This document shows, piece after piece, positions 4,174 through 21,233 of a stretch of 46,408 nucleotides of DNA. The notes beneath the pieces were generated by a model. The model was not told the origin of the DNA and made no database searches. It saw only the letters and a program-made list of their open reading frames with translations. Position 1 is the stretch's first letter; the number at the start of each line of letters is the position of its first letter. A program made the position numbers and the translations under genes. Source of the DNA: a virus (Duplodnaviria; Heunggongvirae; Uroviricota; Caudoviricetes); IMG/VR virus record IMGVR_UViG_2740892219_000006, one strand, 5' to 3'.

Positions 4174-4331
4174 TTGGTACCTCAAATTGTTTAAAATGTG
4201 TTAATTACAAAATTCAGCCGATACCATGTTCAATGGTATAGCATTGCTGAAATGTCTTTTTCAAGACCTTGCCAATAAGCTAAACAAAAATGTTTAATGC
4301 TTCGCCTAAAAAAACACCAGTCACTATTGTT

Positions 4332-4440
4332 TATATAATTATAGATTTATATAAAAAGTGCTTTACGGGTGGAAAAAAATTTCCTAAGGTTATACCCGAA
4401 ACCGAGCGATACCCGCCCTGGTTAAACCGGAGATAACCCG
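4332..4440 (+). promoter_or_regulatory. Conserved promoter/leader/RBS cassette, copy A (includes the AT-rich 22-bp motif)
   Basis: About 109 bp nearly identical to 14027-14134 and 21124-21233: AT-rich motif, TTTACG-N17-TAAGGT promoter-like hexamers, conserved leader and GGAG RBS directly before the ATG. Confidence 0.55.
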
Positions 4441-4821
4441 ATGAGCATGATTAAAATCCGCAAAAACGCTTTCCTTAAAATTCAAACTATCCTGGCTGGT
4501 TCTGTTGGCGTGATTTGCCGTTCTTCTTCAAGCCGCATCGATGACGGCTACGATGATGAGTATCGTGTGTCCTCGTGCGATGAGGCTTTAACCTGGCTGA
4601 AGGAGAATCAGGAACGTGCCCAGGTATATCTGGAAACAGAGAACGGCAATCAGATGCTGCGTATTAGCGGTCGTTATGGATTTGAAACTACATTCATGGC
4701 CTATTTTAATCAGGCTTACTTTGACAAGGAGTTGGCCTGGTACACTGATCGCATGAGCAAAAGCGAGCCAGCCCCGATTACACCGCCGAACAATAAACCA
4801 TTTTTATTCCTCGTTAAGTAA
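4441..4821 (+). CDS. Hypothetical protein (126 aa)
   Basis: ORF directly driven by cassette A; no recognised domain. Confidence 0.5.
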   Translation: MSMIKIRKNAFLKIQTILAGSVGVICRSSSSRIDDGYDDEYRVSSCDEALTWLKENQERAQVYLETENGNQMLRISGRYGFETTFMAYFNQAYFDKELAWYTDRMSKSEPAPITPPNNKPFLFLVK

Positions 4822-4884
4822 ACACAATGCGTAAAGTGTCATTTTGACACTTTGCGAGTGTTAATATTGTGCGAGGAGGGTGCT

Positions 4885-5157
4885 ATGACGGGTTATGAAT
4901 TGAAATTATGGCGTCGTGGGATGAACTGGACGCAGGAGCGAGCCGCCGAAGAATTTGGGATATCGTTGGCTACATATAAGCGATATGAGAAGGGGGAGCC
5001 GCCGAGGGTCATTGAGATGGCCATTCGCGTTCTGTCGTTTGACGATATGGTGAAGGATCTTTCACACCTTGATAAAGACGCGATTCTGTTAAGGCTGCAA
5101 ACCCTTGTATGGGAAAAGGTTAAAGTGTCGTCAGAATTGGAACAAGGGATCAAATGA
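4885..5157 (+). CDS. XRE-family HTH protein
   Basis: HTH-like LKLWRRGMNWTQERAAEEFGISLATYKRYE; GAGGAGGG RBS before ATG 4885. Confidence 0.5.
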   Translation: MTGYELKLWRRGMNWTQERAAEEFGISLATYKRYEKGEPPRVIEMAIRVLSFDDMVKDLSHLDKDAILLRLQTLVWEKVKVSSELEQGIK

Positions 5158-5205
5158 TCCTTTACGGATCGTTTTATGGTGGTGTAATGTAAGCGCCAGA
5201 AAGAC

Positions 5206-5231
5206 AAAAACCGCCTTGCCGGGCGGTTTTC
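5206..5231 (+). terminator. Intrinsic terminator-like hairpin
   Basis: AAAACCGCC-TTGCCG-GGCGGTTTT immediately after the 4885-5157 gene. Confidence 0.5.
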
Positions 5232-5924
5232 AGTCTGAAATTTAAATCTTGCTTGGTAGGCTGGATTTAAAAAGACACCTCTTGATTGGGGCGGCTTTCT
5301 TGCGTCTAAAGATAATCAAATCTTTTTGCGCCTGCAACCCCTTTTTTACTGGTGCCCATTTCAGACTCACGCTCGCGTCGTTGTCTTTGCCACTTCGTTG
5401 GGTTCGGTGTTTTTGGGCGAAGTGGCGCGCGGGTATGCGTACAAGGGGAAAGTGTGCTGACGCAAGCCAGGAACAGCGATCTAAACTAAGTCGAGTCTGA
5501 GAAAGGCAGGAGTGCGACAACTCGCCTGTGCTCTATGAGCAGAAGAAGGTATATCAGACGACCAATGGCATGATTGTGGGCCACAGGGCGCACACGGCGG
5601 CGAAGCATTGGAAACGATGTGGAGCTATCTGGTGGCATGAGTTCCGGTACTCGATCTCGAGCTTTTTTTGATGCTTTTGAGAAGGGGCCGGAACTCCGGT
5701 AAAGGGCACCCTGTATGGGGGGAGGGGGGGGTGTGTCTGAAGGGTGGTTATCGGTTATGGTGGAATTATGATGCGTAGAAAAGCGAGTTTGCTGCAAGCT
5801 ATTGGGTCCATTATTTCTTTGTTTCCGGCAGTTGATCATTTTCGTCATATGGCGACGCGTTCCAGTATGGGCTTGGCGCGTGATGCTGACGCTATTCGAA
5901 AGGATTTTCAGAACGTCTCTGGCG

Positions 5925-5962
5925 TTGATAAGAGAGAAAAGAGTAAGGGGCCGTAGCCCCTT
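5925..5962 (-). terminator. Intrinsic terminator downstream of the antirepressor gene (minus strand)
   Basis: AAGGGGC-CGTA-GCCCCTT hairpin followed on the minus strand by CTCTTTTCTCTCTT. Confidence 0.6.
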
Positions 5963-5966
5963 GTAG

Positions 5967-7112
5967 TTATGGTCTGCTTTTCTGTGCCAGCTTATCAGCA
6001 CATGTTTTTATCAGATCCTGTAGTGTCCTGGCTGGCAGGTTTGCATCCAGAACGCTGAGTATGCTGTTGTGATCAGCCTGGTCGACTACTTTGCCTGTCG
6101 GTGGTAGTAGCTTGAGCTGAGGATTCAGGTTTTCGTCAAAGCTGATAAGTGCTCTGGCGTTTCTGAGCAGATCAAGAAGTAAGGCTGATATCACATTTTC
6201 CTGAGTCATTGCTGGCAGATTTAGCGTCGCTTTGGTTTTCCCTGTTGCCTTGTCAAACTCCTTGATTAGTTCCTTCCTGTAGTTCGGTTCCGTTAATAGC
6301 CGATTATGCTCTGTTGCCGCGCGGATAATCGTTTTTTCCTGGTACAGTCGTTTAGCCAGATCGCGCTCGTACTGTGTTTTTAACACGCTGCTGATAGCGT
6401 TAAAGGCTTCAATGTAGGCCAGCTTGATATCCTTCACGCCTGGGCCGTCGATACTTTCCATGAGCAAGGTAAATCCGTCTTTTGTCATGCGATAGATTGT
6501 TATTTCGCGGTCGCTTCCTTCCAGCGGTCGTTGCTCTTTAAAGAAATGACGTGCCGCAGCCGTGCGAGGAATGCGTAGCGCATCGATGGCCATAACGATG
6601 GAATTGTTTGTGGTGCTGAATGCCTGGGCAACATCGGCTGAGGTTGTGAGTGGCTCGTTGTTGCACACCTTAATGTAAAACATCGGTTTGGCGTTGAGCG
6701 TATCGACAACCTCACGAGCATTGTTTGGCGAGACGGTAACGGTCGCGGCCGTTTGCGCGTTCTGGTTGAAGTAGCAGTCTTCCAGCCGTTCGAACACATC
6801 CCACGCTTGGTTAGTTTCAAGCATTTTGGCGTGACGTGCAGCCCCGCGTTCTGTCCAGAGGATGAGGGAGCGGACTTTAGGTGAAACTGGATTTTGTGAG
6901 TAGTTTAAAGCTACCCGCAATTCTTTAAGGTCATTACCAACAACTTTGAAAAAGTGTTTCCCTTCAACGAAACGTACTTTGTTCTCATGATGATTCTGGC
7001 GAATACGCACCGGCTCAGTGCCGTAAAGCTGTGCCAGTAACTCGGTAGTAATGACAGGGATTTGGTTATGCAGGATAGGCTGTAGGGTGTTAACGGTCGG
7101 AAGCGTTTTCAT
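5967..7112 (-). CDS. Phage antirepressor (ORF6N-type N-terminal domain plus Rha-like domain)
   Basis: 381 aa; N-terminal ELLAQLYGTEPVRIRQNHHENKVRFVEGKHFF is recalled as ORF6N/Ant-like; central region ITIYRMTKDGFTLLMESIDGPG..IKLAYIEAFN is recalled as Rha-like. Confidence 0.7.
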   Translation of the reverse strand: MKTLPTVNTLQPILHNQIPVITTELLAQLYGTEPVRIRQNHHENKVRFVEGKHFFKVVGNDLKELRVALNYSQNPVSPKVRSLILWTERGAARHAKMLETNQAWDVFERLEDCYFNQNAQTAATVTVSPNNAREVVDTLNAKPMFYIKVCNNEPLTTSADVAQAFSTTNNSIVMAIDALRIPRTAAARHFFKEQRPLEGSDREITIYRMTKDGFTLLMESIDGPGVKDIKLAYIEAFNAISSVLKTQYERDLAKRLYQEKTIIRAATEHNRLLTEPNYRKELIKEFDKATGKTKATLNLPAMTQENVISALLLDLLRNARALISFDENLNPQLKLLPPTGKVVDQADHNSILSVLDANLPARTLQDLIKTCADKLAQKSRP

Positions 7113-7300
7113 TTTGTACCTCCCATAACTACTTTGGTTACGAGGGAGATTTTTGCGTCAGAAACAGTGTTATCGTTGCTGGCGATGCGCATAGCTTCGC
7201 GCTCGATGATTTCAGCCAGGCGGAATTTATCGGCGTATGAGGCTTTCTTGAGAAGGATCTTTACGAGGTTGACGTAATAGTCATGGGGTAGGTTTGTCAT
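7109..7300 (-). CDS. Small protein (63 aa) translationally coupled to the antirepressor
   Basis: ATG 7300 with GGAGAT RBS; stop overlaps the antirepressor start. Confidence 0.45.
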   Translation of the reverse strand: MTNLPHDYYVNLVKILLKKASYADKFRLAEIIEREAMRIASNDNTVSDAKISLVTKVVMGGTK

Positions 7301-7594
7301 TGTGATATCTCCGATTAAAGGAACTATCACCACCAATGACGCCAATCAATATGGTGGTGAGACGTACAGGGTTGGCGTAACCGGCACAATGACAAACCCG
7401 GCGCGGATTTCTCCGCCCCCGCACGCCCCACCATAATTTGGGTGTAGCAGTGCTTTACGCATAAAAAAACCGCTAACGCGGTATGCGCCATTGTGCAATC
7501 GGGACGCCAATCCCGACCGTAGATTTTGCTACGGCTCGGAAAGTGTCCACCAATGGCGCATTCATGTCAATACGGCGGGATTTTAACAGAGACA

Positions 7595-7609
7595 ACCACA
7601 TAGCGTGGG
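7595..7609. promoter_or_regulatory. Operator-like site ACCACATAGCGTGGG upstream of the antirepressor operon
   Basis: 14/15 match to the ACCAC-N5-GTGGT palindrome. Confidence 0.35.
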
Positions 7610-7680
7610 TTTGAAAAACGGAATTTTCTGCTCATTAAGCGCATGATTTGACCAATCAAATTTGTTTGATACTGAATTTT

Positions 7681-7806
7681 GGGAATCTAATGTGAATGTA
7701 AGGAACCTTAACGTGAGTGTTGGGAACTTAACGTGATTTATTGTTGAAAAAAGTTGCTTTGCATCCAATTTTTTGGATATGATTTGAATGTAGGGAACTT
7801 CATTGT
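7681..7806. promoter_or_regulatory. Direct-repeat array (GGGAAC-TTAACGTGA-like, 3-4 copies) plus palindrome ATCCAATTTTTTGGAT in a putative promoter
   Basis: Repeats at about 7681, 7700, 7720 and 7790; the 16-bp palindrome at 7763-7778 sits between TTGCTT (-35-like) and TATGAT (-10-like). Confidence 0.45.
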
Positions 7807-7869
7807 ATTGGATGTGGTTTCTTTTGAGAATGGAAATTGGTAGTGAATTTAATGCAGAGGAGGTAAAAA

Positions 7870-8442
7870 ATGACTGAACTGTCAAAAAACTCATGTTTTT
7901 CAACAATTCACCTAATGATCATAAAAGAACTTAGGCTAGAAAGAGGTGTGCATCAAGGAGTGCTGGCCCAAGCGGCTGGAAAAACACCAAACGCATGGAC
8001 AAAGATAGAGAACGGGCAGTCTGTATTAACGGTTGATGCTCTTTTTGGTGCTTGCTCTGCCCTTAATATTAGCCCAATGAATTTCATGTTGTTGGTAGAA
8101 AAACTGATTCCCGAATTTAATCGCTGTGGTTACTACTTTTTCCCGGGAACAATCGATCAGGACGAGGATAACCTTTTGCCTCTGATGCTGAGTTACTTCA
8201 ACAGCAAGGGGTTTGAAGCATTGAGAAATAGGCCATTCGAAAGAATTAGCATTAGCTCAATGGGATTCTCATTTGGGGGCGGCTTCCCTGTTACTCCAAC
8301 TGCTGTAATGTATTGTTGCGATGAAGCATATAGACATTGGGTCGATAACGGTGCTGATATGGATAATCGAGATTATCTGGAGTCATCAACAGGTCTTGGA
8401 CGGTTTTTAATGAGTGAAGAAACAAAAAAACCGCCCTATTGA
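7870..8442 (+). CDS. XRE-HTH regulator with C-terminal domain of unknown function
   Basis: 190 aa; N-terminal HTH (LAQAAGKTPNAWTKIENGQ); unrecognised C-terminal about 110 aa; GAGGAGG RBS. Confidence 0.55.
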   Translation: MTELSKNSCFSTIHLMIIKELRLERGVHQGVLAQAAGKTPNAWTKIENGQSVLTVDALFGACSALNISPMNFMLLVEKLIPEFNRCGYYFFPGTIDQDEDNLLPLMLSYFNSKGFEALRNRPFERISISSMGFSFGGGFPVTPTAVMYCCDEAYRHWVDNGADMDNRDYLESSTGLGRFLMSEETKKPPY

Positions 8443-8847
8443 GGACGGTTCTTTCGTGCTGATCGGATTCGCGGTCCTTTCAGCATTACGTTGTTGTATA
8501 AACAACCACGCAAGCACAAGCAGCAAGTTGATTTTACCCAAAAGGTAATAATAGTCCACTATTATGCTTCAAAAAATTGTGGTTCTTGTTGTGTCTGCAA
8601 ACTCACAGATTGTGGGTAGGTTACTGATTTTGTGAAAATAAACTGGTTTTTTCGTTTAATTTATTTCCTATTACTAATCTTAAAATAATCGTAAAATACC
8701 TGTGGACCTTCCCGCCGATTCGCACCCGGGCACCGACTTTAGGGGAGGATTTCCTGTTGCCGTACATGCAAGCACAAGCAGCCGTGCTTGCTCTCGCGTT
8801 GTTTTCGTCGGTGGGGATGCCGTGAAACGGCCTGTAAGGGCCATACA

Positions 8848-8970
8848 ATGAAAAAATACTGTATGTGTATTTTTATCGTTGTTACTGGGGCTTTGTTTAC
8901 GCCACATGGGGAGGGTTGGAAGATTACTGATAACGCTCTGAATGTGACGATAAACATTAGCAGCAAGTAG
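8848..8970 (+). CDS. Possible small hydrophobic peptide (40 aa)
   Basis: MKKYCMCIFIVVTGALFT signal-like N-terminus; immediately followed by a strong terminator; weak RBS. Confidence 0.25.
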   Translation: MKKYCMCIFIVVTGALFTPHGEGWKITDNALNVTINISSK

Positions 8971-8975
8971 CGATT

Positions 8976-8998
8976 AGGCCCCTTCGGGGGCCTTTTTT
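8976..8998 (+). terminator. Rho-independent terminator
   Basis: AGGCCCC-TTCG-GGGGCCT followed by TTTTTT. Confidence 0.7.
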
Positions 8999-9008
8999 AT
9001 GGTTGAAT

Positions 9009-9158
9009 TTAAACGCTGGAGCGCATTAAGCCTTTCAGAACTGCTTCACGTACCCATTCTGGCCTGGTGGATAGCAGGGCAAATAAGCGGCCAGCTTGCA
9101 GCCGTTTGAGGTCTATTAGACGAGTTTTTAGTAACCGTGTATATTGTTGCTCGGACAT
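9009..9158 (-). CDS. Small hypothetical protein (49 aa) downstream of parG
   Basis: ATG 9158 with AAGGGG RBS; no recognised domain. Confidence 0.3.
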   Translation of the reverse strand: MSEQQYTRLLKTRLIDLKRLQAGRLFALLSTRPEWVREAVLKGLMRSSV

Positions 9159-9220
9159 AACAAATTCCCCTTGTTGTGTCGCGACGGCCAACAGTTGGCG
9201 CTGGAGGCCGTCACCTTCTC

Positions 9221-9469
9221 TTACTTCTGGTTGTATTGAGCCTTAAGTAACTCAAAAGATTTTGTCAGCACTTCTTTCAATGACATATCCATTGAGCTGG
9301 CGAACGTTTTGTACTCGCGTTTAAATTCAGGGTCGACGTTAAACGCCATTTGTGCCCCACCTGATTTGGTTCTGGTTGGCGTTTCAGTCGGGTCGAAAAC
9401 CTGCGGTTGTTCGATCGATGGCGGTACGCCTTTGCTGTTCTTCTTTGGTGGTTTTGATGGTGCGGCCAT
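9221..9469 (-). CDS. ParG-like ribbon-helix-helix centromere-binding protein
   Basis: 82 aa directly downstream of parA; basic, probably disordered N-terminus and an RHH-like C-terminus (MAFNVDPEFKREYKTFA...); AGAGGGG RBS. Confidence 0.55.
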   Translation of the reverse strand: MAAPSKPPKKNSKGVPPSIEQPQVFDPTETPTRTKSGGAQMAFNVDPEFKREYKTFASSMDMSLKEVLTKSFELLKAQYNQK

Positions 9470-9482
9470 GTGTATCCCCTCT

Positions 9483-9512
9483 TATATAAATCTATAAAAC
9501 TATAATTATATA
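9483..9512. repeat. AT-rich 22-bp motif copy (TATATAAATCTATA / TATAATTATATA) between parA and parG
   Basis: Member of the dispersed motif family also found at 4331, 10191, 10265, 14019, 15231, 15281, 19977 and 21116. Confidence 0.5.
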
Positions 9513-10166
9513 TTACGCGGCAGTAGTCAGAGCCTCAAGCTGGTTGATAATCCCCTGAATAACGTCGTCTGCCTTTTTGCGTGGCGCAACGTATGAGCAC
9601 TCAATGAGGCTTAAGCCCTTATCCTGAGCTTTGCTCAGAGCTGGCTTGTGGGGAATGTACTTATCGACAACAAAGTATGGCGTATTAGCCAGGTACTCTT
9701 GGGCTTCAATATAGTCAGCTTCGTTTTCAGCCGCGCCGGAAAACACCATGCAAATTTTCTTGATTGGTACACCCTTTTTAACGATGCCGTGAGCTGTGTT
9801 AACGGTGGTTTCCAGGTCATCGGTAGAGAATCTGGTTGGCAAAATAACCATATCCAGAAATTCAGAGAGCTTCGGTACTGATTCAGATGCGTAGGCACCG
9901 CCATCGACGATAACCAAGTCGTATACTTCTGATTCGATGATTTTCTGGACTTGTGATGGTGTGCCGCACGGCTGCGCCGCGATTGCTGGTTCGATATTGT
10001 TGGCCATTCTGCGTTGTACCCAACGCGTTACCGTTCCGTTAAGCACATCCATATCGATCAGGCATACATTCCAGCCAGCCTTTGCATAAGCAACTGCTAA
10101 AGCACGGGCAATTGTTGATTTGGTTACGCCGCCTTTTCCGTTGAAAATACCTACAGAGATAGTCAT
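9513..10166 (-). CDS. parA: ParA-family partition ATPase (small type Ib ParA/ParF-like)
   Basis: Deviant Walker A GKGGVTKST near the N-terminus; about 217 aa; start placed at ATG 10166 (GGAG RBS). Confidence 0.8.
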   Translation of the reverse strand: MTISVGIFNGKGGVTKSTIARALAVAYAKAGWNVCLIDMDVLNGTVTRWVQRRMANNIEPAIAAQPCGTPSQVQKIIESEVYDLVIVDGGAYASESVPKLSEFLDMVILPTRFSTDDLETTVNTAHGIVKKGVPIKKICMVFSGAAENEADYIEAQEYLANTPYFVVDKYIPHKPALSKAQDKGLSLIECSYVAPRKKADDVIQGIINQLEALTTAA

Positions 10167-10190
10167 TTGTCGAGACTCCATGTGTTTGAT

Positions 10191-10294
10191 TATATAATTC
10201 TATAAATCTATATTTATAGAACGAGGTAAGCATAACCAACTTTTTGGCGGATGAAAAGCGTTTTATATAATTATATAAATCTATAATCATATAA
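10191..10294. repeat. Centromere/operator-like AT-rich iterons upstream of parA
   Basis: Two direct copies of TATATAATT-TATAAATCTATA about 70 bp apart (10191-10220 and 10265-10294) in the parA promoter region. Confidence 0.5.
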
Positions 10295-10316
10295 GCGGGC
10301 GTTAGCCCGCTTGCAG

Positions 10317-10691
10317 TCAGAGGTCAGCTATCGTTGATATCAGTTGATTTGCTAGCTGTCGCTGTTTACGTGAGAGGGTTAGAGCAGCTTCTGAGCGGTC
10401 GCTAAGAGGGGTGTTTTCATCGAGAATCATGAGGCATACAGAAATAATAGCTCTGTTATATGCCATCAATGGCTGGCACAGCTTCGATACCGCTGGCACA
10501 TCGTATTGTAAGGCCGTTTTGAGGCAGATTTTTTGTTCTGATGCCAGATGAAGGATAGATTCTATCCAGTCGATATCTTTCTCATTATCAATGATTTGGC
10601 ATAACATACACTCAATCGCTATGTTCAACGCTTGGATTTCGATTCCAGCAGTGATCAGAGTTTCGTTTTTATTGGCTGTATGTAATTCCAT
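10317..10691 (-). CDS. Hypothetical protein (124 aa) downstream of the repressor gene
   Basis: AAGAGG RBS 7 nt upstream of the ATG; no recognised domain. Confidence 0.45.
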   Translation of the reverse strand: MELHTANKNETLITAGIEIQALNIAIECMLCQIIDNEKDIDWIESILHLASEQKICLKTALQYDVPAVSKLCQPLMAYNRAIISVCLMILDENTPLSDRSEAALTLSRKQRQLANQLISTIADL

Positions 10692-10726
10692 GCGTAGCCT
10701 CTTTTATACTTTTACATGTTGTCAAA

Positions 10727-10741
10727 ACCACAAAATGTGGT
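10727..10741. promoter_or_regulatory. Operator-like palindrome ACCACAAAATGTGGT (followed by a T-run)
   Basis: Perfect ACCAC-N5-GTGGT between the repressor gene and the next gene; could also act as a terminator hairpin. Confidence 0.45.
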
Positions 10742-10783
10742 TTTTTTGAGCGTAGAAATGCACGGCTTCCGCCGTGCTGTGTA

Positions 10784-11440
10784 TCATAACCAGTTGACAA
10801 CACTAACTACGCGGCCAAGAACTTTATAACGCTTAAATTCCTCATTATTCAGATGCTTAGTGTTCATTTCAGCATCCCTTTCGGTTGACAGCATAACAGC
10901 ATTGTCACCCGGTATGACTCTACAGTGCCTCAAAACAACCAGGCCATTTCTGTCTTCAAGGGCATAGATCCCCTCATGAATCTCTGTATCGTCTGTATTA
11001 ATCAGGACTTGGGAGCCAGGGGATATTGTTGGTGACATTAACTCATCGTTGCTCTGGAGAACTGACAGAGACGATGGGTTGATGTTCTTGCTTCGTAGAA
11101 TCTCCTGTTCTATCGCCAGCACTGGCTTTTCTCCGGCGTGCGATGCTATGTCATTTTTTATAGCTACAAGCCCAGGAATAACAGGAGCGTTAGTATTCTG
11201 GGGTGGGAACGGGTTATCTGTTAAGCACGCGATATAAGGCGCTGATGCTTTCAGGGCGTGCGCGATTTTCTTGATGGCAGGTATAGATGGTTGTCTTAAT
11301 CCGGCCTCATAGTTCTGCAAGGTGCTTAAGCCTATTCCAGTGACTTGCTGGAGATCTCCGGCAGTCATGCCGGATTGTTTCCGTAGAGTCTGAATGCGCA
11401 GACCTATTTCTTTCTTGATGTTCTCGTCGTTGCTTTTCAT
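10784..11440 (-). CDS. CI-like prophage repressor (N-terminal HTH, C-terminal S24 LexA-type peptidase domain)
   Basis: 218 aa; HTH near the N-terminus (LQQVTGIGLSTLQNYEAG); C-terminal region with lambda CI/LexA-like architecture. Confidence 0.85.
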   Translation of the reverse strand: MKSNDENIKKEIGLRIQTLRKQSGMTAGDLQQVTGIGLSTLQNYEAGLRQPSIPAIKKIAHALKASAPYIACLTDNPFPPQNTNAPVIPGLVAIKNDIASHAGEKPVLAIEQEILRSKNINPSSLSVLQSNDELMSPTISPGSQVLINTDDTEIHEGIYALEDRNGLVVLRHCRVIPGDNAVMLSTERDAEMNTKHLNNEEFKRYKVLGRVVSVVNWL

Positions 11441-11477
11441 GTCTCATCAATCGTGAATGGTGGGTTATTTATACATT

Positions 11478-11595
11478 ACCACATTTAGTGGTTTTCACAT
11501 GGTAAGACGAGAGGTGGACCACAAATAGAAGGTTATTTTTTGTTTTGCTCATTGAAAAACTCACGATATGTGGTTTTAATACCACGTATCGTGGT
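11478..11595. promoter_or_regulatory. Immunity control region: three ACCAC-N5-GTGGT operators with divergent promoters
   Basis: Sites at 11478-11492, 11560-11574 (one mismatch) and 11581-11595; rightward promoter TTGAAA (11552-11557), 17 bp, TTTAAT (11575-11580) overlapped by two operators. Confidence 0.6.
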
Positions 11596-11614
11596 TTTAA
11601 CTGGAGTTCGTTAA

Positions 11615-13584: not shown

Positions 13585-13587
13585 ACA

Positions 13588-13965: not shown

Positions 13966-14026
13966 AAGTGTCATTTTGAGCTGTTTTGATAGTGTGTAGA
14001 CATCGGGAACATCGAAAATCTATAAA

Positions 14027-14134
14027 TATATAATTATAGATTTATATAAAAAGTGCTTTACAGGTGGGAAAAAATTTCCTAAGGTTATACCCGAAACCGA
14101 GCGATACCCGCCCTGGTTAAACCGGAGAAATCTG
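14027..14134 (+). promoter_or_regulatory. Conserved promoter/leader/RBS cassette, copy B
   Basis: Near-identical to 4332-4440; ends at ATG 14135. Confidence 0.55.
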
Positions 14135-15202
14135 ATGAATAAACAAGTAATTATTTCTGACTGGATCAACAACCCTAACAGCCTGTTAAGCACTGATACT
14201 GGCTACCTATTACGCCATGTTAATGGTCGTATGGTCAAAAGCGATGAGCACGAAACCTTTTTCTTTGTTGAAGACGATGGGCGCATCTATGAGGATGGTT
14301 ACTCTTATGAAGCCCAAACAGGTTGTATCCCTGCGGAGCTGGTGGACGTAACAGAAGAGCTGCGCAAAGCATGGCTTGAACAGCAGCAGCGCGGAGATGA
14401 TTACGTAAATACCTATCAGGAACGCCAGAACGCGCGTCTTGCCCGATATATTGCTCGTGCAGAAAAAGCCAGAAAAGAAGGAGCGGTAGCGCATAAGCGA
14501 GCGCATGACCTGTTGGATGTGATCCCGTTAGGCCAGCCGATTTTAGTTGACCATTATAGCGCGAAAGGCCATCGCCGCCGTTTGTCTAAAGCTGATGCGT
14601 TATTCAGAAAAGCGTTTGTTGAATGCGAAAGTAAAGCATCACACTACGAGAGCAAAGCCGCAGGTGTTGGTCGTAATGGAATTTCGTCTGATGATCCTGA
14701 TGCGCTATTTAAGTTGCTTCGTAAGCTGCAAGGCTGCATGAAGTCACACGTCAAAATGAAGGCCGCAAATAAGGCCATTCGCAAATACAAAAAAGACCAA
14801 TTACAGCAGCTTTCTGCATTAATCGATCTCAGGTTTACAGAAAGCGAAGCCAAAGAGTTACTGGCCGGAGATTTCTGTGGGTGCATCGGATTCCCTTCAT
14901 ACGCACTGAGCAACAATAACGCCGCAATCAAACGACTACAGAGCCGTATTAAGGAGCTTGAATCGGTCAAGTCTGTAACAGGAGCACAGCGCGAAGAATA
15001 CGACGGCTTTTCTATGGAGATAGATCCAGAGGATAACCGCATCCTGTTTTATTTCCCTGGCAAACCAGAGGCAAACATTCGTTCGCTGCTTAAATCACGC
15101 GCCTTTAAGTGGAGTCCAACCCGTAATGCATGGGTTCGCAAGATTACTCCAAACGCCCTGGCTGATGCCCGATATCTAAAAGAATCGCTATTGAAAGCCT
15201 GA
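14135..15202 (+). CDS. Conserved hypothetical protein (355 aa; possibly DUF3560-like)
   Basis: Long ORF driven by cassette B; the C-terminal half resembles a remembered plasmid/phage DUF3560 pattern, unverified. Confidence 0.55.
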   Translation: MNKQVIISDWINNPNSLLSTDTGYLLRHVNGRMVKSDEHETFFFVEDDGRIYEDGYSYEAQTGCIPAELVDVTEELRKAWLEQQQRGDDYVNTYQERQNARLARYIARAEKARKEGAVAHKRAHDLLDVIPLGQPILVDHYSAKGHRRRLSKADALFRKAFVECESKASHYESKAAGVGRNGISSDDPDALFKLLRKLQGCMKSHVKMKAANKAIRKYKKDQLQQLSALIDLRFTESEAKELLAGDFCGCIGFPSYALSNNNAAIKRLQSRIKELESVKSVTGAQREEYDGFSMEIDPEDNRILFYFPGKPEANIRSLLKSRAFKWSPTRNAWVRKITPNALADARYLKESLLKA

Positions 15203-15212
15203 CAGTAAGCCT

Positions 15213-15310
15213 ACGGCGGGACGTCTCCCCCCGTATATAGAATTATATATTTATATAAATAACGGCGGGACGTCTCCCGCCGTATATAGAATTATATATT
15301 TATATAAATG
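15213..15310. repeat. Tandem duplication (2 x 49 bp) of a GC hairpin fused to the AT-rich motif
   Basis: ACGGCGGGACGTCTCCCGCCG palindrome followed by TATATAGAATTATATATTTATATAAAT, present twice in tandem; first copy has one stem mismatch. Confidence 0.6.
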
Positions 15311-15328
15311 TATAAGGACGCCTCGACA

Positions 15329-15610
15329 ATGAAACGCAAAATTATTAACCCCCAAGATGTGATTAATTTCCTGACCGATCACCCATGTTCAAAAGTGGAC
15401 GTAATCGCGGAGCACATTGGTGTGTCGCAGAACTCTATGCGTTGCAGACTGAGAAGCATGGTTGCCGAAGGACAGATAACAACCAGGAAAATAAATGGTT
15501 GCCTGTACTACTCCGCTAAACCGGAATTGCCATTTGGCATGAATCCTAACTCCATGTTGTTTAACACCTTATTAGCCAAAGTTAAGCCGTTGAGAGGGGC
15601 TGTGGCATGA
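15329..15610 (+). CDS. Small putative DNA-binding protein
   Basis: 93 aa from ATG 15329; segment VDVIAEHIGVSQNSMRCRLRSMVAEGQI resembles a winged-helix/HTH. Confidence 0.4.
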   Translation: MKRKIINPQDVINFLTDHPCSKVDVIAEHIGVSQNSMRCRLRSMVAEGQITTRKINGCLYYSAKPELPFGMNPNSMLFNTLLAKVKPLRGAVA

Positions 15611-15972
15611 GCATCAAAACCCATACCGGAATAATCATTACCAATGATGGTGAGAAAAGAGTGAAGTTGCGTGAAACGCCGACAACCTGGTGTGTTGGTC
15701 CGAAAGAAACATATCGCAAGGAAGATGGCCGTCGTTGTGGGGCACCACTTTCCCGCCGTCGCCTCCTTTTGAGCACGATAAAACCTATCGGGCAGGTTGA
15801 GCAACCAACGACTCCGGTAACGAAGATTTCAGACAATAGTCTGGCAAACCTGATCGCTGATGCGGACAAGGTGCTGGAGCGAAACACCCCCGTTGCAGAT
15901 GAGGAATGGTGGCAGGATTTCCGAGCTGCAATGCTAGAGCTTCAGGAACGTCGTCGGGAGGAGTTGAAGTGA
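15607..15972 (+). CDS. Hypothetical protein (121 aa)
   Basis: ATG overlaps the upstream stop; no recognised domain. Confidence 0.4.
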   Translation: MSIKTHTGIIITNDGEKRVKLRETPTTWCVGPKETYRKEDGRRCGAPLSRRRLLLSTIKPIGQVEQPTTPVTKISDNSLANLIADADKVLERNTPVADEEWWQDFRAAMLELQERRREELK

Positions 15973-15992
15973 GCAAGGTGAAAGAGCGCGGC

Positions 15993-16598
15993 ATGATTTT
16001 TAATGATGAGATGGTCCGAGCCATCCTCGAAGGCAGGAAGACGCAGACTCGTCGACCTGTAAAAAATGTCAGGGCCGATAACTGCCTGGTTATCAGTAAA
16101 CCGACAAAGAAACGCAATGGTGTCTATACCCACGTTATGGATGCACCTGAGCATGGCTTATGCCCGTTCGGTAACGTTGGTGATCGCATATGGGTACGTG
16201 AGACATTCAACGCTTTTTGGCTGGATGACGATGTTATTCAGGAAATCAAAGATGGTGTCTCTCTGGCTTCTGAACTGTGTGATTACAAGGCTGATTACTC
16301 AGATAGTAGCAAGCCATCTGAGGGCTGGACCCCGTCAATTCACATGCCGAGATGGGCATCGCGAATTTTGCTGGAAATTACCGACGTGCGTGTGGAGCGG
16401 CTGCATGACATGAGCGAGGCAGATGCCAAAGCGGAAGGCGCATCTCCGGCAACGTACAAGATTACGCCGCCGGAAGCTGTTTATCGTGTTGGTTTTGGTG
16501 ATATCTGGCGCGGTATTTACGGGCAAGAGAACTGGCTATCTAACCCGTGGGTATGGGTAATTGAGTTTAAACGTATTCAGGGGGCAAACAGTGAGTAA
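15993..16598 (+). CDS. Hypothetical protein, possibly ASCH-like
   Basis: N-terminus MIFNDEMVRAILEGRKTQTRRPV is common in a prophage protein family; start uncertain (alternative GTG 15969/15978). Confidence 0.4.
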   Translation: MIFNDEMVRAILEGRKTQTRRPVKNVRADNCLVISKPTKKRNGVYTHVMDAPEHGLCPFGNVGDRIWVRETFNAFWLDDDVIQEIKDGVSLASELCDYKADYSDSSKPSEGWTPSIHMPRWASRILLEITDVRVERLHDMSEADAKAEGASPATYKITPPEAVYRVGFGDIWRGIYGQENWLSNPWVWVIEFKRIQGANSE

Positions 16599-16848
16599 TT
16601 CCGCACGGCTACAGCTTGGTTTTTCACCGCTATCAAAAACCATCGTGTTGGCCAAAATGCGCGATTTAGGTGACGGAACAAAACGCCGTGTAGGCAATGA
16701 TCGCGGTCGTGATGTAACCAACGAGGCCGCACAACTCGTTTGGCATCTTGTCATGGCAGAAGGCGGTGAAATCAATTGGGAGCTGGATGATGGTTCTCGC
16801 ATGGTGTTAAGGGCAGAAAAGCAGGGGGCAAACGATGAAAAACCGTAA
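16591..16848 (+). CDS. Hypothetical protein
   Basis: GTG start preceded by AGGGGGCAAAC, the same RBS context as the next gene. Confidence 0.35.
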   Translation: MSNSARLQLGFSPLSKTIVLAKMRDLGDGTKRRVGNDRGRDVTNEAAQLVWHLVMAEGGEINWELDDGSRMVLRAEKQGANDEKP

Positions 16849-17029
16849 AGCAAAGATTCTGTTAGTTCGTAGAAACGCTCCTGGCGTCTGGCAGTGGGTG
16901 AGACTCAGCAACCGACGGATGGGGTTAATGAAACATTACGGGATGATGGATTGTGGTTTTTGCAAAAAGCCCAGCGCGGCGCAAAACCGCTGGAAAAACC
17001 ACTGTTATCTGCGCACTAAAGGAGAGTGA
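16835..17029 (+). CDS. Small Cys-containing hypothetical protein (64 aa)
   Basis: AGGGGGCAAAC RBS before ATG 16835. Confidence 0.4.
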   Translation: MKNRKAKILLVRRNAPGVWQWVRLSNRRMGLMKHYGMMDCGFCKKPSAAQNRWKNHCYLRTKGE

Positions 17030-17030
17030 G

Positions 17031-17546
17031 ATGGCGTTAACACACCGCGAACTCTGTCAGATTGCGTACAAGTTCCTTAAGCGCAACGGGTTCAAGGTTT
17101 GCTTTCATGACCGCTTTATAGCTGTAACCAGTACCGGAGAACAGCCAGATGCTATGGGATTCAGAAATTCAGCATCATGCCTGATAGAGGCAAAGTGTTC
17201 TCGTGCTGACTTGTTGGCAGATAGAAAAAAGCGTTTCCGTAAAAATCCCTCACTTGGCATGGGCGACTGGCGATTCTTTATTAGTGAGCCGGGAATTATT
17301 TCAGTTGAGGATTTACCTCCCGGCTGGGGATTACTTCACGTTGTTAACGGAAGAGTACGGAAAGTACATGGGTGGCCCAAGGGAAATTGCTGTTGGGGTA
17401 ATCCTGACGATAAGCCATTTACTGGAAATAAGCAGGTTGAATGCGATTACATGTTATCTGCATTAAGGCGCATGGAGTTGAGAGGGCACCTTAATGAAAT
17501 ATATGACGGTGTAATTGTTAATAAGAAAGAAGGAAACGCGGCATGA
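17031..17546 (+). CDS. Putative PD-(D/E)XK-family nuclease
   Basis: AAGGAG RBS before ATG 17031; motif PDAMGF...CLIEAKCSRAD is compatible with a D...E.K nuclease core. Confidence 0.4.
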   Translation: MALTHRELCQIAYKFLKRNGFKVCFHDRFIAVTSTGEQPDAMGFRNSASCLIEAKCSRADLLADRKKRFRKNPSLGMGDWRFFISEPGIISVEDLPPGWGLLHVVNGRVRKVHGWPKGNCCWGNPDDKPFTGNKQVECDYMLSALRRMELRGHLNEIYDGVIVNKKEGNAA

Positions 17547-17986
17547 TTACTATTACCAAAGAGCGACTACTGACAATCAAGCAGTGGCGCGAAACATACG
17601 GACCTAGTAGCAACGTTGTACTGCCAGCAGAAGAAGCGGAAGAACTGGCACGAATTGCTCTGGCAGCGCTGGAAGTCGAGCCGGTTGCAGTAAACGACGA
17701 CATGGCTTACGCATTCCATCACGCATTGTCAGATTCATCGCTAGGCGCTGATGAAGTAGAGGAAATTAAGGCCGGTTTGCGTGCTGCCTTTGCCAACGTC
17801 ACTATCCAACCAGAGCCGGTAGTGCCGGATGATGGTCGCGAAAAGTTCGAAGCACTTGTCAGGTTTCATGCGGGTGATAAAGACCATGAAACATTATTGC
17901 TTCGTGCCAACGAAGGGATGAATTACCAGGACCCGAATGTTGATCTGGCGTGGATATTCTGGAAGTCCAGTCGTGAACATATATAA
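17543..17986 (+). CDS. Hypothetical acidic protein (147 aa)
   Basis: Start overlaps the upstream stop; no recognised domain. Confidence 0.45.
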   Translation: MITITKERLLTIKQWRETYGPSSNVVLPAEEAEELARIALAALEVEPVAVNDDMAYAFHHALSDSSLGADEVEEIKAGLRAAFANVTIQPEPVVPDDGREKFEALVRFHAGDKDHETLLLRANEGMNYQDPNVDLAWIFWKSSREHI

Positions 17987-18328
17987 GCTGTAGTGAGAAG
18001 CCATGCGATTACGAGCAGTATTCAGATATTCAGAGCGGATAATGAAGCACATACAACCGAAAACATGGCAGAAACTGGACTCTATGGGAGTTAAGTTGGA
18101 GAAGATTACTCAACTTAAGCAGTGGCATATCGGCGAATATTATGGAAGTCCTGGTCGGGATGTTCGGTTGGTAAAAAGTTGAACATTGCTTTTTTATTGA
18201 TCGATTAACCACGATATGAAGGTTTTTTTATGGGAAAACCTTGTTTTAGGTGGTAACTGGGTGTAGTGTTTCATTTAACGTAGTAAAACTGCGTTAAGCG
18301 ATTACCGCGTAATTTGTTGCTTTATGAA

Positions 18329-18359
18329 GCCCTGCCTTTTTCGGCGGGGCTTTTTTTTT
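18329..18359 (+). terminator. Rho-independent terminator ending the early operon
   Basis: GCCCTGCC-loop-GGCGGGGC hairpin followed by a 9-T run. Confidence 0.7.
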
Positions 18360-18372
18360 AACGAGGATTTCA

Positions 18373-18768
18373 ATGTCAGCAGAACCAATTTCCGGTACGG
18401 CCGTTGCTGCTGGTGGCCTGATGGGTGCCAGCGTTTTTGGTATTGCAACTGGTATTGATTACGGCGTTGTATTCGGGGCATTTGCTGGCGCTGTTTTCTA
18501 TGTTGCTACAGCGGTGAATATTAGCCGTCTCAAGCTGATTGGCTATTTCTTTACATCGTTCATTGTTGGAGTGATTGGAGCGCCGTTAGTTGGCTCATTT
18601 CTTGCCAAATGGACCAGCTACAACGATCGTCCTCTGGATGCGCTTGGTGCGGTTATTGTGGCTGCATTGACCATTAAAATCCTCACGTTCGTAAACAGCC
18701 AGGATCTCGGTAGCATCTTTGGAATGCTTTCCCGCTTACGTGGAGGGGGTTCAAATGGTAAGCAGTGA
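18373..18768 (+). CDS. Holin-like membrane protein
   Basis: 131 aa, several hydrophobic segments, first gene of the lysis cassette. Confidence 0.5.
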   Translation: MSAEPISGTAVAAGGLMGASVFGIATGIDYGVVFGAFAGAVFYVATAVNISRLKLIGYFFTSFIVGVIGAPLVGSFLAKWTSYNDRPLDALGAVIVAALTIKILTFVNSQDLGSIFGMLSRLRGGGSNGKQ

Positions 18769-19051
18769 CCCGTCAGCACTGATTAATGCGGTGCTTTGCA
18801 CAGTAATCGTAATGGCGCTGATGCTTTATCGACGGAAAGACTCCAGGCATCGTCCATTTGTTTCCTTTCTGGCTTATATCTACGTCATTGTATACGCCAA
18901 TGTTCCCTTCCGTTATGTGTTCGGTCTTTATCAAGAATCCCACTGGCTGGTGGTTATTGGAAATCTGATTATCTGCATCGTTGTTCTGTATTTCAGGGGC
19001 AATCTGGCGCGGATAGTTGACGCATTAGGATTTAATCATGACCAAAGATGA
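18755..19051 (+). CDS. Second small membrane protein (holin/antiholin-like)
   Basis: 98 aa from ATG 18755 (GGAGGGGG RBS); two hydrophobic segments. Confidence 0.45.
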   Translation: MVSSDPSALINAVLCTVIVMALMLYRRKDSRHRPFVSFLAYIYVIVYANVPFRYVFGLYQESHWLVVIGNLIICIVVLYFRGNLARIVDALGFNHDQR

Positions 19052-19580
19052 GATTTTTAACAGCATTCTTGGAAAAGAGGGCGGCTATGTGGATCACCCT
19101 GACGACAAGGGAGGCCCAACAAAGTGGGGCATTACTCAGAACACTGCCCGTGCTCATGGATACCGTGGCGATATGCGCGATTTAACCCGCGAACAGGCAC
19201 TAGAAATCCTTGAGGCTGATTACTGGTACGGACCACGCTTTGATCAGGTGGCCGCATTATCCTCTGATATTGCCGCAGAGCTGTGTGATACCGGTGTGAA
19301 TATGGGGCCAACAGTGGCGTCCAAAATGCTTCAACGCTGGCTGAATGTGTTCAATCTGCGTGGGAAGCTGTATCCCGATTTGGATGCAGATGGACGAATC
19401 GGTCCACGTACCATTAATGCGCTGCGTGCTTATCTTGGGAATCGGGGAAAAGACGGCGAACGGGTGATGCTGACGTCGCTGAACTGTACGCAGGGCGAAC
19501 GCTATCTGGAGTTGGCGGAGAAGCGCGAGGCGAATGAGTCGTTTGTCTACGGCTGGATGAAAGAGCGAGTGGTGGTATGA
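19038..19580 (+). CDS. Endolysin (glycoside hydrolase family 108 plus peptidoglycan-binding domain)
   Basis: N-terminal KEGGYVDHPDDKGGPTKWGIT signature recalled for GH108 lysozymes. Confidence 0.8.
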   Translation: MTKDEIFNSILGKEGGYVDHPDDKGGPTKWGITQNTARAHGYRGDMRDLTREQALEILEADYWYGPRFDQVAALSSDIAAELCDTGVNMGPTVASKMLQRWLNVFNLRGKLYPDLDADGRIGPRTINALRAYLGNRGKDGERVMLTSLNCTQGERYLELAEKREANESFVYGWMKERVVV

Positions 19581-19855
19581 CTGGTTTGAAGGCCGTTTTG
19601 TCATTTATTGGCACAATTATATTGGTTGCATTCGGCGCGTTTGGTTTTGGTCGTATGAAGGGGCGAGAAAAGGCCGAAGATGAAGCTGAAAAGCAGCGCA
19701 TTAATGAGAATGCAGCCGCCGTAAAAGCCACTGCGGAGCGGCGTATAGAAGTGACAAAAGAGGTGGGGAATGTACAGCAGAGTGTTAACCATATGGCTGA
19801 TGACGATGTTGATCGCGAGCTGCGGGAGTCGTGGAAGCGTCCCGGTGGTGGTTGA
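19577..19855 (+). CDS. Rz-like inner-membrane spanin
   Basis: 92 aa with N-terminal TM segment and charged coiled-coil region; follows the endolysin. Confidence 0.6.
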   Translation: MTGLKAVLSFIGTIILVAFGAFGFGRMKGREKAEDEAEKQRINENAAAVKATAERRIEVTKEVGNVQQSVNHMADDDVDRELRESWKRPGGG

Positions 19856-19979
19856 TACCGCCTGTGATTGGGTAAAGCCCATCTACCTGACTGATCACGA
19901 CATCGATGTTATGGACCGCCAGACAAAGAAAGATATTCTGGCTCATAACAGGGCATGGGAAATCAACTGCCGAAAGTAA
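19770..19979 (+). CDS. Rz1-like outer-membrane lipoprotein spanin, overlapping Rz in another frame
   Basis: Signal peptide with lipobox LIASC; AGAGGTGGGG RBS; starts inside the Rz reading frame. Confidence 0.55.
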   Translation: MYSRVLTIWLMTMLIASCGSRGSVPVVVDTACDWVKPIYLTDHDIDVMDRQTKKDILAHNRAWEINCRK

Positions 19980-20013
19980 TATATATTTCTATAATTATAT
20001 AAATATATAGTTA
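19977..20013. repeat. AT-rich 22-bp motif copy
   Basis: TCTATAATTATATAAATATATA; same family as the par-region iterons. Confidence 0.45.
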
Positions 20014-20148
20014 CAACATTCTATGCGCTTTTCTCATGAGCGCACGCATCAACCATGTTTGTCTGATATGCCGCCGCGCCCAAAAATCCTGAATTTATTG
20101 GCTGGGATTTTCGTGCGCGGCGCCACACCAGACAAACAGATCAAATAT

Positions 20149-20224
20149 GGCCCCTTAGCTCAGTGGTTAGAGCAGGCGACTCATAATCGCACGGTCATCG
20201 GTTCAAATCCGGTAGGGGCCACCA
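20149..20224 (+). tRNA. tRNA with CAU anticodon (Met or lysidine-dependent Ile2 type), 3-prime CCA encoded
   Basis: Manually folded cloverleaf: 7-bp acceptor GGCCCCT/AGGGGCC, D-stem GCTC/GAGC, anticodon loop CTCATAA, T-stem ATCGG/CCGGT with TTCAAAT loop; the 5-prime half resembles the E. coli Ile2 tRNA from memory. Confidence 0.85.
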
Positions 20225-20532
20225 ATTCACTCTCACACATAAAGATAAGCGCGGTGGAGTTACTTCCTTCGTGCTCATCTTTATGCGTGCCTGGTGCGCA
20301 TTTCGGGCGAACGTGGGGCTAAGTTACAGGCAGGGCCTGTTATCCGCAAAGGGGTAAAAGCTGGAGCGGCGCGGAACTGTAGCCGTGTTACCAAAACAGC
20401 GTTGTCGGGCGATATCCGGCACACAACAGGCAAGGGCATTAATCAGTCTGGTTAGTGCCCTTTTCGTTGTGTTTGCTGTAGAGCTGGCCAGCGTTATGAC
20501 TGCCGGAGATAAGCGCCGGAGGCACAACTAAC

Positions 20533-21120
20533 ATGGAGGCAATTGCATTGTTTAATCTGATTTATGCAGATCCCCCCTGGGAATACAAAGACAAGTGTAA
20601 GGATGGGAATCGTGGAGCTGGTTTTAAGTATCCAACGATGAAAGCTGAGGATATTGCTCGTATTCCTGTCTGGCAGCTTGCTAATCCTGAATCGTGTTTG
20701 TTGGCCATGTGGTGGGTTCCGACTCAGCCAGAAGAAGCGTTGCTGGTGGTGAAAGCATGGGGATTCAGGCTTATGACCATGAAGGGCTTCACATGGAACA
20801 AATGTGGTAGCCGACAACCAGATAAGCTGGTGATGGGGATGGGGCATATGACTCGTGCGAACAGTGAAGATTGCTTGTTTGCGGTAAAAGGCAAACTGCC
20901 GACCCGCCTTGATGCGGGGATCATTCAGTCGTTTACATCGCCTCGTTTGGAGCATTCTCGGAAGCCTGATGTGGTCCGTGACAAGCTGGTAAAGCTGTTA
21001 GGCGATGTTCCTCGTATTGAGCTGTTTGCTCGCGGAGATTTACCTGATGGTTGGCATGGCTGGGGCAACCAGTGCAATGGAGGTATCCAGTTGCATGATG
21101 CTCTCTGGCAAGTGGTATAG
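20533..21120 (+). CDS. MT-A70-family N6-adenine DNA methyltransferase
   Basis: 195 aa with DPPW motif (LIYADPPWEY) near the N-terminus; GGAGG RBS. Confidence 0.8.
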   Translation: MEAIALFNLIYADPPWEYKDKCKDGNRGAGFKYPTMKAEDIARIPVWQLANPESCLLAMWWVPTQPEEALLVVKAWGFRLMTMKGFTWNKCGSRQPDKLVMGMGHMTRANSEDCLFAVKGKLPTRLDAGIIQSFTSPRLEHSRKPDVVRDKLVKLLGDVPRIELFARGDLPDGWHGWGNQCNGGIQLHDALWQVV

Positions 21121-21123
21121 AAT

Positions 21124-21233
21124 TATATAATTATAGATTTATATAAAAAGTGCTTTGCAGGTGGGAAAAAATTTCCTATAGTGGCAACCAGAAACCGAGC
21201 GATAGTCGCCCTGGTTAAACCGGAGATAACCCG
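21124..21233 (+). promoter_or_regulatory. Conserved promoter/leader/RBS cassette, copy C
   Basis: TTTGCA (21154-21159), 17 bp, TATAGT (21177-21182); the leader differs from copies A/B by clustered substitutions creating AACCAG...CTGGTT complementarity. Confidence 0.55.

Follow-up and report, generated by a model that had tools for sequence, protein, structure and literature searches.

Nine 8-bp-period box arrays on an enterobacterial phage-plasmid, probable binding sites of its own ParG-like ribbon-helix-helix protein

INTRODUCTION

To our knowledge, the coordination of plasmid maintenance with the silencing of phage genes is understood in few models, such as P1 and N15. In the phage-plasmid P1, the immunity repressor C1, which is not a partition protein, has many dispersed copies of one operator. 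In the IncP plasmid RK2, the partition protein KorB is also a global repressor of plasmid genes, with about a dozen operators in dispersed positions; it belongs to the ParB family, has a helix-turn-helix (HTH), recognizes 13-bp palindromes, and can act at a distance, and it is not a ribbon-helix-helix (RHH) protein, has no arrays of sites, and is not found on a phage. The Sop system of N15, in work attributed to Ravin, Rech and Lane (J Bacteriol, 2008), reportedly also influences late gene expression. Here, we analyze a 46,408-nucleotide stretch of viral DNA (IMG/VR record IMGVR_UViG_2740892219_000006; "the window" below is this whole stretch), which represents an almost complete ~48-kb phage-plasmid of Enterobacteriaceae, and we concentrate on nine short arrays of AT-rich boxes and on an 82-amino-acid (aa) RHH protein encoded next to parA. 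A literature search found no paper on this element family or its arrays.

The ParF/ParG system of plasmid TP228 offers a close comparison; there, as in the window, the gene for a small ParA precedes one for a small RHH protein whose N-terminal tail is flexible (PMC3130281). ParG sites consist of 4-bp boxes and 4-bp AT-rich spacers, direct or inverted, with one dimer per box, and ParG coats parH and the OF operator cooperatively (PMC3130281). The rows upstream of the TP228 operon, which are both centromere and operator, share with ours the 8-bp period and the mixed orientation (PMC3130281); they differ in the unit (a 4-bp box plus a 4-bp spacer versus a 6-bp TATAKA box plus 2 bp) and in length (8 to 12 boxes versus 3 to 4). 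All described ParG sites are at its own locus (PMC3130281), whereas six arrays of the window are outside par and another occupies the space between the parA and RHH genes.

Omega of the Inc18 plasmid pSM19035 is a partition protein and a global regulator with several dispersed parS sites (PMC9499535). It is likewise an RHH protein with short repeats of either orientation at the promoters of several operons, its 7-bp repeats overlapping the copS, delta, and omega promoters (PMC9499535). The likeness to the present element is by position only: Omega has 7-bp WATCACW repeats in rows of 7 to 10 on a Gram-positive plasmid, whereas here an 8-bp period and TATAKA boxes are found on an enterobacterial phage at different target genes, and no Omega chain was among the four PDB matches of the RHH family profile at an E value of ≤10, nor was Omega among the 25 most-matched Pfam families. 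N15, like the present element, is a phage-plasmid with partition-protein sites scattered over its genome (PMC7205306), but its SopB is a large type Ia HTH ParB acting on single palindromes, in contrast to an 82-aa, predicted type Ib RHH protein on promoter-positioned arrays.

On the evidence of sequence comparison, we consider it fairly likely that the nine arrays are bound by the 82-aa ParG-like RHH protein that the element itself encodes, with a centromere and autoregulatory operator at par and a dispersed regulon elsewhere. The principle of a partition protein that is also a global regulator is already known from Omega and KorB, and dispersed sites on a phage-plasmid are known from N15. What appears to be new is the combination of a ParG-like type Ib RHH protein, an enterobacterial contractile-tailed phage-plasmid, 8-bp-period sites at fixed promoter positions, and at least four co-evolved specificities.

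RESULTS

An initial annotation of the window, made by a model from the letters and their open reading frames (ORFs), had listed a dispersed 22-bp AT-rich motif in at least nine copies. When the 22-mer was searched for with up to 3 mismatches, we obtained 12 overlapping positions in the window and none in 100 dinucleotide-preserving shuffles; the 12 reduce to exactly nine sites, each within a few bases of the position first given. The repeated motif is therefore real, but the 22-bp word is not its unit. Each site is a row of 3 to 4 tandem units in a strict 8-bp period, and the nine arrays hold 34 boxes in total. In each unit a box of 6 bp, which reads TATA[T/G/c]A or, in the opposite orientation, T[A/C/g]TATA, comes before 2 bp of A/T. 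Box orientations are mixed inside single arrays, so the earlier distinction between forward and reverse-complement copies means little. In 66 units taken from the window and a Salmonella relative, positions 1 to 4 read T (63/66), A (66/66), T (66/66), and A (65/66), and position 6 is A in 65; position 5 alternates between T and G, and positions 7 and 8 alternate between A and T.

A motif scan with statistics, one of the checks that the initial annotation had proposed, found nine chains of at least 2 boxes in register versus 0.15 in 300 local-composition shuffles (composition preserved within 500-bp blocks), and eight chains of at least 3 boxes versus 0; a generic scan for self-similarity at a lag of 8 was too strict and missed most arrays. 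All nine arrays lie within 4.3 to 21.2 kb and are non-coding, in a region of which only 16% is non-coding, although one of them overlaps the final 5 nt of an MT-A70 methyltransferase gene. No array was found by the in-register chain scan from 21.2 to 46.4 kb, even though this half is more AT-rich. The shuffles and the empty, AT-richer late region argue strongly against chance or AT-richness as the origin of the arrays; local AT-richness had been named at the outset as what might explain the motif frequency. The count of nine should nevertheless not be read as nine separate copies: the arrays at 15236 and 15285 stem from a local 49-bp tandem duplication, and a close relative has a single copy.

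The par locus carries three of the arrays, with 12 boxes in total within 810 bp. Its parA gene (9513-10181, minus strand) encodes a small, 222-aa Walker-type partition ATPase of type Ib-like character, which matches the Pfam families CbiA (E = 1.7e-12), ParA (E = 2.7e-09), MipZ (E = 5e-09), and AAA_31. In an alignment its P-loop reads GKGGVTKS, a deviant Walker A motif, and like type Ib ATPases the protein is small and Walker-type and has no N-terminal DNA-binding domain. The gene for the 82-aa ParG-like RHH protein (9221-9469, minus) is directly downstream of parA. Three arrays had been described as flanking this cassette; all three are at the locus, but they do not flank it, as two are upstream of parA and one is between parA and the RHH gene.

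The two upstream arrays bracket the predicted parA promoter. Following the minus strand, a terminator hairpin (10295-10310) is directly followed by the distal array (10264-10293, 4 boxes), which ends 6 nt upstream of the predicted -35. The promoter read from the sequence (10229-10257) has a -35 hexamer TTTTCA (10257-10252), a 17-nt spacer, and a -10 hexamer TATGCT (10234-10229), and the same layout is found in four other lineages. The proximal array (10191-10220, 4 boxes) begins 8 nt past the -10 and leaves 9 nt to the parA ATG, and relative to this predicted promoter its position is operator-like. The order of distal array, -35, 17 nt, -10, proximal array, and ribosome-binding site (RBS) is kept in groups A to D of the relatives described below, despite their different boxes. 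The third array (9483-9512, minus, 4 boxes) fills the gap from the parA stop codon to the RBS of the RHH gene, and it has the same placement in relatives L003, L014, L015, and L022. Just downstream of the par operon, at 8702-8998 (plus), there is a full-length match to the ryfA RNA (143 bits, E = 7e-37), which overlaps several short ORFs on the opposite strand.

The 82-aa protein is predicted to have a disordered basic N-terminal tail of about residues 1-40 and a beta-strand, QMAFNV, at residues 40-45. An AlphaFold2 model built with a 71-sequence alignment has block-mean predicted local distance difference test scores of 91 to 96 over residues 41-80, with helices at 47-59 and 64-80 and lower confidence in the tail before them. 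When this model was compared with known structures by Foldseek, the first 40+ matches were RHH proteins with one exception (among them CdbA, StnY, AmrZ, CopG, Arc, and ParD-type antitoxins), with a root mean square deviation typically of 1 to 3 Å over ~42 to 46 residues and a target-normalised TM-score of up to 0.87. A word-indexed protein search returned close relatives only, whereas an exhaustive HMMER profile search returned 92 related proteins of 45 to 140 aa, each representing a cluster at 50% identity. The family alignment shows a conserved basic N terminus, MA..KP.K...KG.PP, and the C-terminal pattern LNFKV..EF.REFK.FA...D.SM..LL...FE..K. Of 71 family members compared with Pfam, 37 matched RHH_10, 20 matched Antitox_RHH, and 5 matched ParG (best E = 2.7e-4); for the 82-aa protein itself, no significant sequence match to the ParG family (PF09274) was obtained. 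As modeled, the architecture is that of a type Ib centromere-binding protein.

To compare relatives, loci were fetched by way of ParA, a plasmid collection, and RHH homologues; a scan of a genome collection for ParA relatives gave two irrelevant matches only. Relatives that share the early module (a CI-like gene, a small gene, parA, the RHH gene, and a divergent early operon) have 5 to 8 arrays each in 8-bp register, versus 0 in shuffles, and these are at equivalent places, with two arrays bracketing the parA promoter and others at cassette-like positions. The box itself differs between lineages. In group A (the window, L001, L003, L014, and L015) the RHH beta-strand reads GAQM[A/S]FNV and the box TATAKA; in groups B and B' (L016 to L020) the strand is GKQLLL[R/Q]L and the box KATATA; in groups C/D (L021 and Serratia L002) the strand is GK[L/P]MNFN[V/M] and the boxes are of the TCTTTA type (TCTTTA/TWWWTA); and in group E (L022) the strand RKLVNFRW goes with the box CTATAAAG. 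Box sequence thus changes together with the RHH beta-strand, giving at least four specificity groups. As a test of prediction, two further loci, P0013 (QPLNFNV) and P0017 (KPINFNV), were picked by their C/D-type strand, and both carry TCTTTA arrays at parA and elsewhere.

Arrays in 8-bp register are also found with the same type of par operon on unrelated replicons, in each case with the RHH homologue encoded after a ParA gene. The par boxes are TAGCGA on a short contig (L029), TGTAGA on a plasmid that encodes RPA-type replication, resolvase, and Fic proteins (L030), and ATAGCT on a phage with DEAD helicase and primase genes (L031). None of the three has arrays away from its par locus; a spread to other promoters therefore seems particular to the phage-plasmid family of the window.

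Three of the arrays outside par belong to ~100-nt cassettes on the plus strand, and their placement at the 5' edge of promoter cassettes, already recognized in the initial annotation, was borne out. In each of them the array ends 8 nt before a predicted -35 hexamer, which is separated by a 17-nt spacer from a predicted -10. Cassette 1 (4332-4440) consists of an array of 3 boxes (4332-4353), -35 TTTACG (4362-4367), -10 TAAGGT (4385-4390), and a conserved leader with RBS before the ATG at 4441. Cassette 2 (14019-14134), 98% identical to cassette 1, has an array of 4 boxes (14019-14048), -35 TTTACA (14057-14062), -10 TAAGGT (14080-14085), and the leader before the ATG at 14135. Cassette 3 (21116-21233) has an array of 4 boxes (21116-21145), -35 TTTGCA (21154-21159), -10 TATAGT (21177-21182), and the leader before the ATG at 21234. 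The leader ends in AAACCGGAGA..ATG. Cassette 1 precedes genes for a 126-aa protein (phrog_8090) and a 101-aa HTH_3/MqsA-like protein (4441-5157), which may form a toxin-antitoxin-like pair, and cassette 2 precedes the gene for a DUF3560 protein with primase-like similarity. The cassettes look like portable promoter-leader modules set before unrelated genes. Upstream of orthologues of the 126-aa gene (orf4441), an array is kept 84 to 89 nt from the start in groups A, B, and B', although the boxes are different.

Several smaller features of the cassettes were recorded. The leaders (4391-4443, 14086-14137, and 21183-21236) are nearly identical through the RBS and start codon (AAACCGGAGATAACCCGATG), the RBS part is also present in the Serratia lineage, and the leader is predicted to fold into a small hairpin (-9.6 kcal/mol, z = -2.4). 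The 17-nt spacers (4368-4384, 14063-14079, and 21160-21176) hold an inverted repeat around an A-run, GGAAA-N4-TTTCC, and the corresponding spacer of Serratia relative L002 (16952-16968) reads TAGGA-N7-TCCTA; this repeat might serve another protein as a second operator, or it might be a bend. In a Salmonella relative, a RelE/ParE-HTH pair adjoins the orthologue of the cassette 1 gene.

The remaining arrays lie at two further places, also on the plus strand. The 49-bp tandem duplication (about 15213-15314) comprises a terminator hairpin and an array in each copy (arrays 15236-15257 and 15285-15314); the copies are 98% identical, and the Klebsiella aerogenes relative L001 has one copy. Array 15285-15314 is directly ahead of the RBS of a gene string (15308-17986) and ends 14 nt before its ATG, which is at 15308 in the frame of the initial annotation. 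The array at 19980-20009 (4 boxes) comes after the lysis genes and upstream of a long hairpin (20056-20138, an inverted repeat with 34-nt arms that are 85% complementary), a tRNA-Met(CAT) gene (20149-20224), and the MT-A70 methyltransferase gene (20533-21120). An ORF at 20023-20322 was considered as the gene downstream of this array and is doubtful, as it covers the tRNA-Met gene and the long hairpin.

DISCUSSION

The ParG-like RHH protein had been named in the initial annotation as a candidate binder of the motif, and the comparisons point the same way: the RHH gene follows that of a small ParA, box and beta-strand co-vary, unrelated replicons with the same par operon have arrays in the same register, and the CI-like protein is disfavored (see below). 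By analogy with ParG and Omega, one RHH dimer would occupy each 6-bp box, with neighbors touching at the fixed 8-bp spacing. The 12 boxes of the three par arrays would make up the partition site on which a segregation complex is built, with the conserved basic tail contacting ParA, and because two of these arrays bracket the parA promoter, the par arrays would also act as an autoregulatory operator. The other six arrays would place the RHH protein at five further control regions, namely, the three cassettes, the gene string, and the tRNA/methyltransferase unit, and it is for this reason that the partition protein would double as a global regulator. At the cassettes it would most likely act as a repressor, either by covering the upstream part of the promoter or by spreading over a short range to reach the -35. 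RHH protein that has accumulated in an established plasmid-prophage would then damp these promoters, which in a newly entered genome would be free.

If so, a ParG-like partition protein appears, judging from site positions, to have at least five regions outside its own operon under its control. The pairs of box and beta-strand would also provide a natural series for how RHH proteins read DNA, and they would predict which elements are incompatible or cross-regulating.

Several observations weigh against this assignment. The arrays are short, with 3 to 4 boxes each, compared with ~8 for good centromere activity of ParG (PMC3130281) and at least 4 contiguous repeats for full ParA activation by Omega (PMC9499535). 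The 82-aa protein matches no Pfam family at an E value of ≤0.01, and the best PDB sequence match of the family profile, ParG (1p94), aligned over the RHH domain, is marginal (E = 0.094). A site 8 nt upstream of the -35 would suit an activator too, and the cassette -10 TAAGGT is weak; for arrays 15285 and 19980 no promoter was identified. Finally, the whole early module co-diverges, including ParA, the RHH protein, the CI-like protein, and proteins of 164, 171, and 77 aa, and among the loci fetched there is no clean recombinant that separates the RHH gene from the genes for other early proteins, so co-variation within the family alone cannot separate the RHH protein from these last three.

More tentatively, the array-linked promoters could form an "establishment regulon" for which the RHH protein is the timer: a new genome, free of RHH protein, would fire them together, and they would be shut as the arrays fill. 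Its members would be par, the possible toxin-antitoxin-like pair, the primase-like DUF3560 gene, the accessory gene string, and the tRNA/MT-A70 unit. Were this speculative scheme true, segregation, copy-number sensing, and prophage gene silencing would share one protein, and fast co-evolution of beta-strand and box would divide otherwise similar phage-plasmids into separate incompatibility and regulatory groups.

The sign of regulation at the cassettes is the first point on which our proposal could be wrong. The RHH protein might bind the arrays and activate the cassettes, recruiting or stabilizing RNA polymerase at promoters with a weak -10, and at the same time keep its own promoter repressed by way of the downstream array. 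The cassette arrays span about -43 to -75, which leaves 8 nt to the -35; TAAGGT is the -10 of two of the three cassettes; and for RHH proteins, AmrZ among them, both activation and repression have been described (PMC3325190). We nonetheless think activation unlikely, though a real alternative given the weak -10, and by analogy repression is the most likely outcome, because the distal par array, 6 nt from its -35, is placed in almost the same way and known type Ib centromere-binding proteins repress their own operons (PMC3130281, PMC9499535). Omega sites at other promoters, moreover, control expression through promoter-overlapping sites (PMC9499535).

It is rather improbable that the dispersed arrays are extra partition sites only, like IR1-4 of N15, with no role in transcription. 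Precedents exist in the four separate SopB-binding IR sites of N15 (PMC7205306) and the six parS sites of pSM19035 (PMC9499535), and each dispersed array resembles those at the par locus. Such a role would not account for the fixed distance of the arrays to a -35 (8 nt) or to start codons (9 to 24 nt), nor for the way in which lineages whose boxes differ all retain an array before the same orthologous gene; in the unrelated replicons with this par type no array is found away from par, and the late-gene half of the window is array-free.

We see only a slim chance that another protein of the element binds the arrays, the candidates being the 164- and 171-aa proteins of the rightward early operon and a fast-evolving 124-aa protein. 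The candidate genes co-diverge with box type, and no recombinant parts them from the RHH gene. They are, however, absent from L029, L030, and L031, where the parA-RHH operons keep 8-bp arrays. In addition, the 124-aa protein shows 52 to 60% identity among members of group A, all of which share one type of box, and homologues of it could not be detected in groups B to E; the 77-aa protein is 57% identical in L015, where the boxes are the same; and RHH proteins typically bind short boxes that are set in rows 8 bp apart and may face either way (PMC3130281). That no specific protein is involved, the arrays being UP-like or bent-DNA elements, sites of a host nucleoid protein, or a by-product of AT-richness, fits their A/T-only composition (except for G/C at box position 5) and the UP-element position of three of them but is very improbable, given that local-composition shuffles yield 0 arrays and the more AT-rich late region has none, that box positions are invariant and spacers drift, and that GC-containing lineage boxes (TAGCGA, CTATAAAG) keep the 8-bp register, which is not expected from a host factor or from composition.

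OTHER FEATURES OF THE ELEMENT

The CI-like HTH/S24 repressor, encoded at 10784-11440 (minus), was considered as the array binder and rejected, as its recognition helix (STLQNYE) is the same in groups A to D while the boxes change and separate palindromes are present. The palindrome ACCAC-N5-GTGGT has eight matches in the window at up to 1 mismatch, versus 0.68 expected (a variant spaced by N6 matches at chance level only, so N5 is right), and the matches cluster in the divergent region adjoining the CI-like gene. Sites are at 716-730, 7595-7609, 10727-10741, 11478-11492, and 11581-11595, with further sites, each with one mismatch, at 23383, 41199, and 45229. These are probably operators of the CI-like repressor, which appears to hold the role of immunity repressor in the window, with a regulon of its own. 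One palindrome lies 6 nt upstream of the start (736) of the IncFII-type repA ORF (736-1746, left half of the window), and another is upstream of the isrK/C4 RNA genes; if the palindromes are indeed CI-like operators, immunity would be linked to replication and to the antirepressor module.

Rfam matches to the C4 antisense RNA (72 bits) and isrK RNA (67 bits) are at 7350-7438 (minus) and 7463-7535 (minus), respectively, directly upstream of a 78-aa gene and the gene for a 381-aa ORF6N/Rha protein (5967-7112), a layout similar to that of immI, the region of phage P1 in which its antirepressor is controlled. Between the CI-like gene and parA, the 124-aa gene (10317-10691, minus) encodes a fast-evolving protein 52 to 60% identical in close relatives and has no detectable homologue in distant ones; a gene of similar size is always in that position.

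Region 4000-22000 matches ~48-kb non-mobilizable plasmids at 97 to 98% identity across 64 to 73% of its length, in the hosts E. coli, E. fergusonii, E. albertii, and K. aerogenes; it also matches the Yersinia phages vB_YpM_39, 41, and 44. Among 5,426 complete E. coli genomes, the par locus was detected in 71, with 71 of 72 matching places on plasmids, and a protein encoded on plasmid NZ_CP009073 of E. coli ATCC 25922, a common quality-control strain, is 98% identical to the 82-aa RHH protein. The element family also occurs in Salmonella, Klebsiella, Citrobacter, and Serratia and, as virions, in the form of the Yersinia phages. Membership of the element in the pSLy3 group was considered and dropped; the pSLy3 group sits in the SSU5 supercommunity. 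The right half of the window contains terminase, portal, and contractile-tail genes. Within it, the gene for a 930-aa tail protein (tape-measure-like) has an internal repeat with a 120-nt period (39997-40281), and near the right end a tandem repeat at 45639-46034 consists of three copies of a 132-nt unit with 100, 86, and 63% identity.

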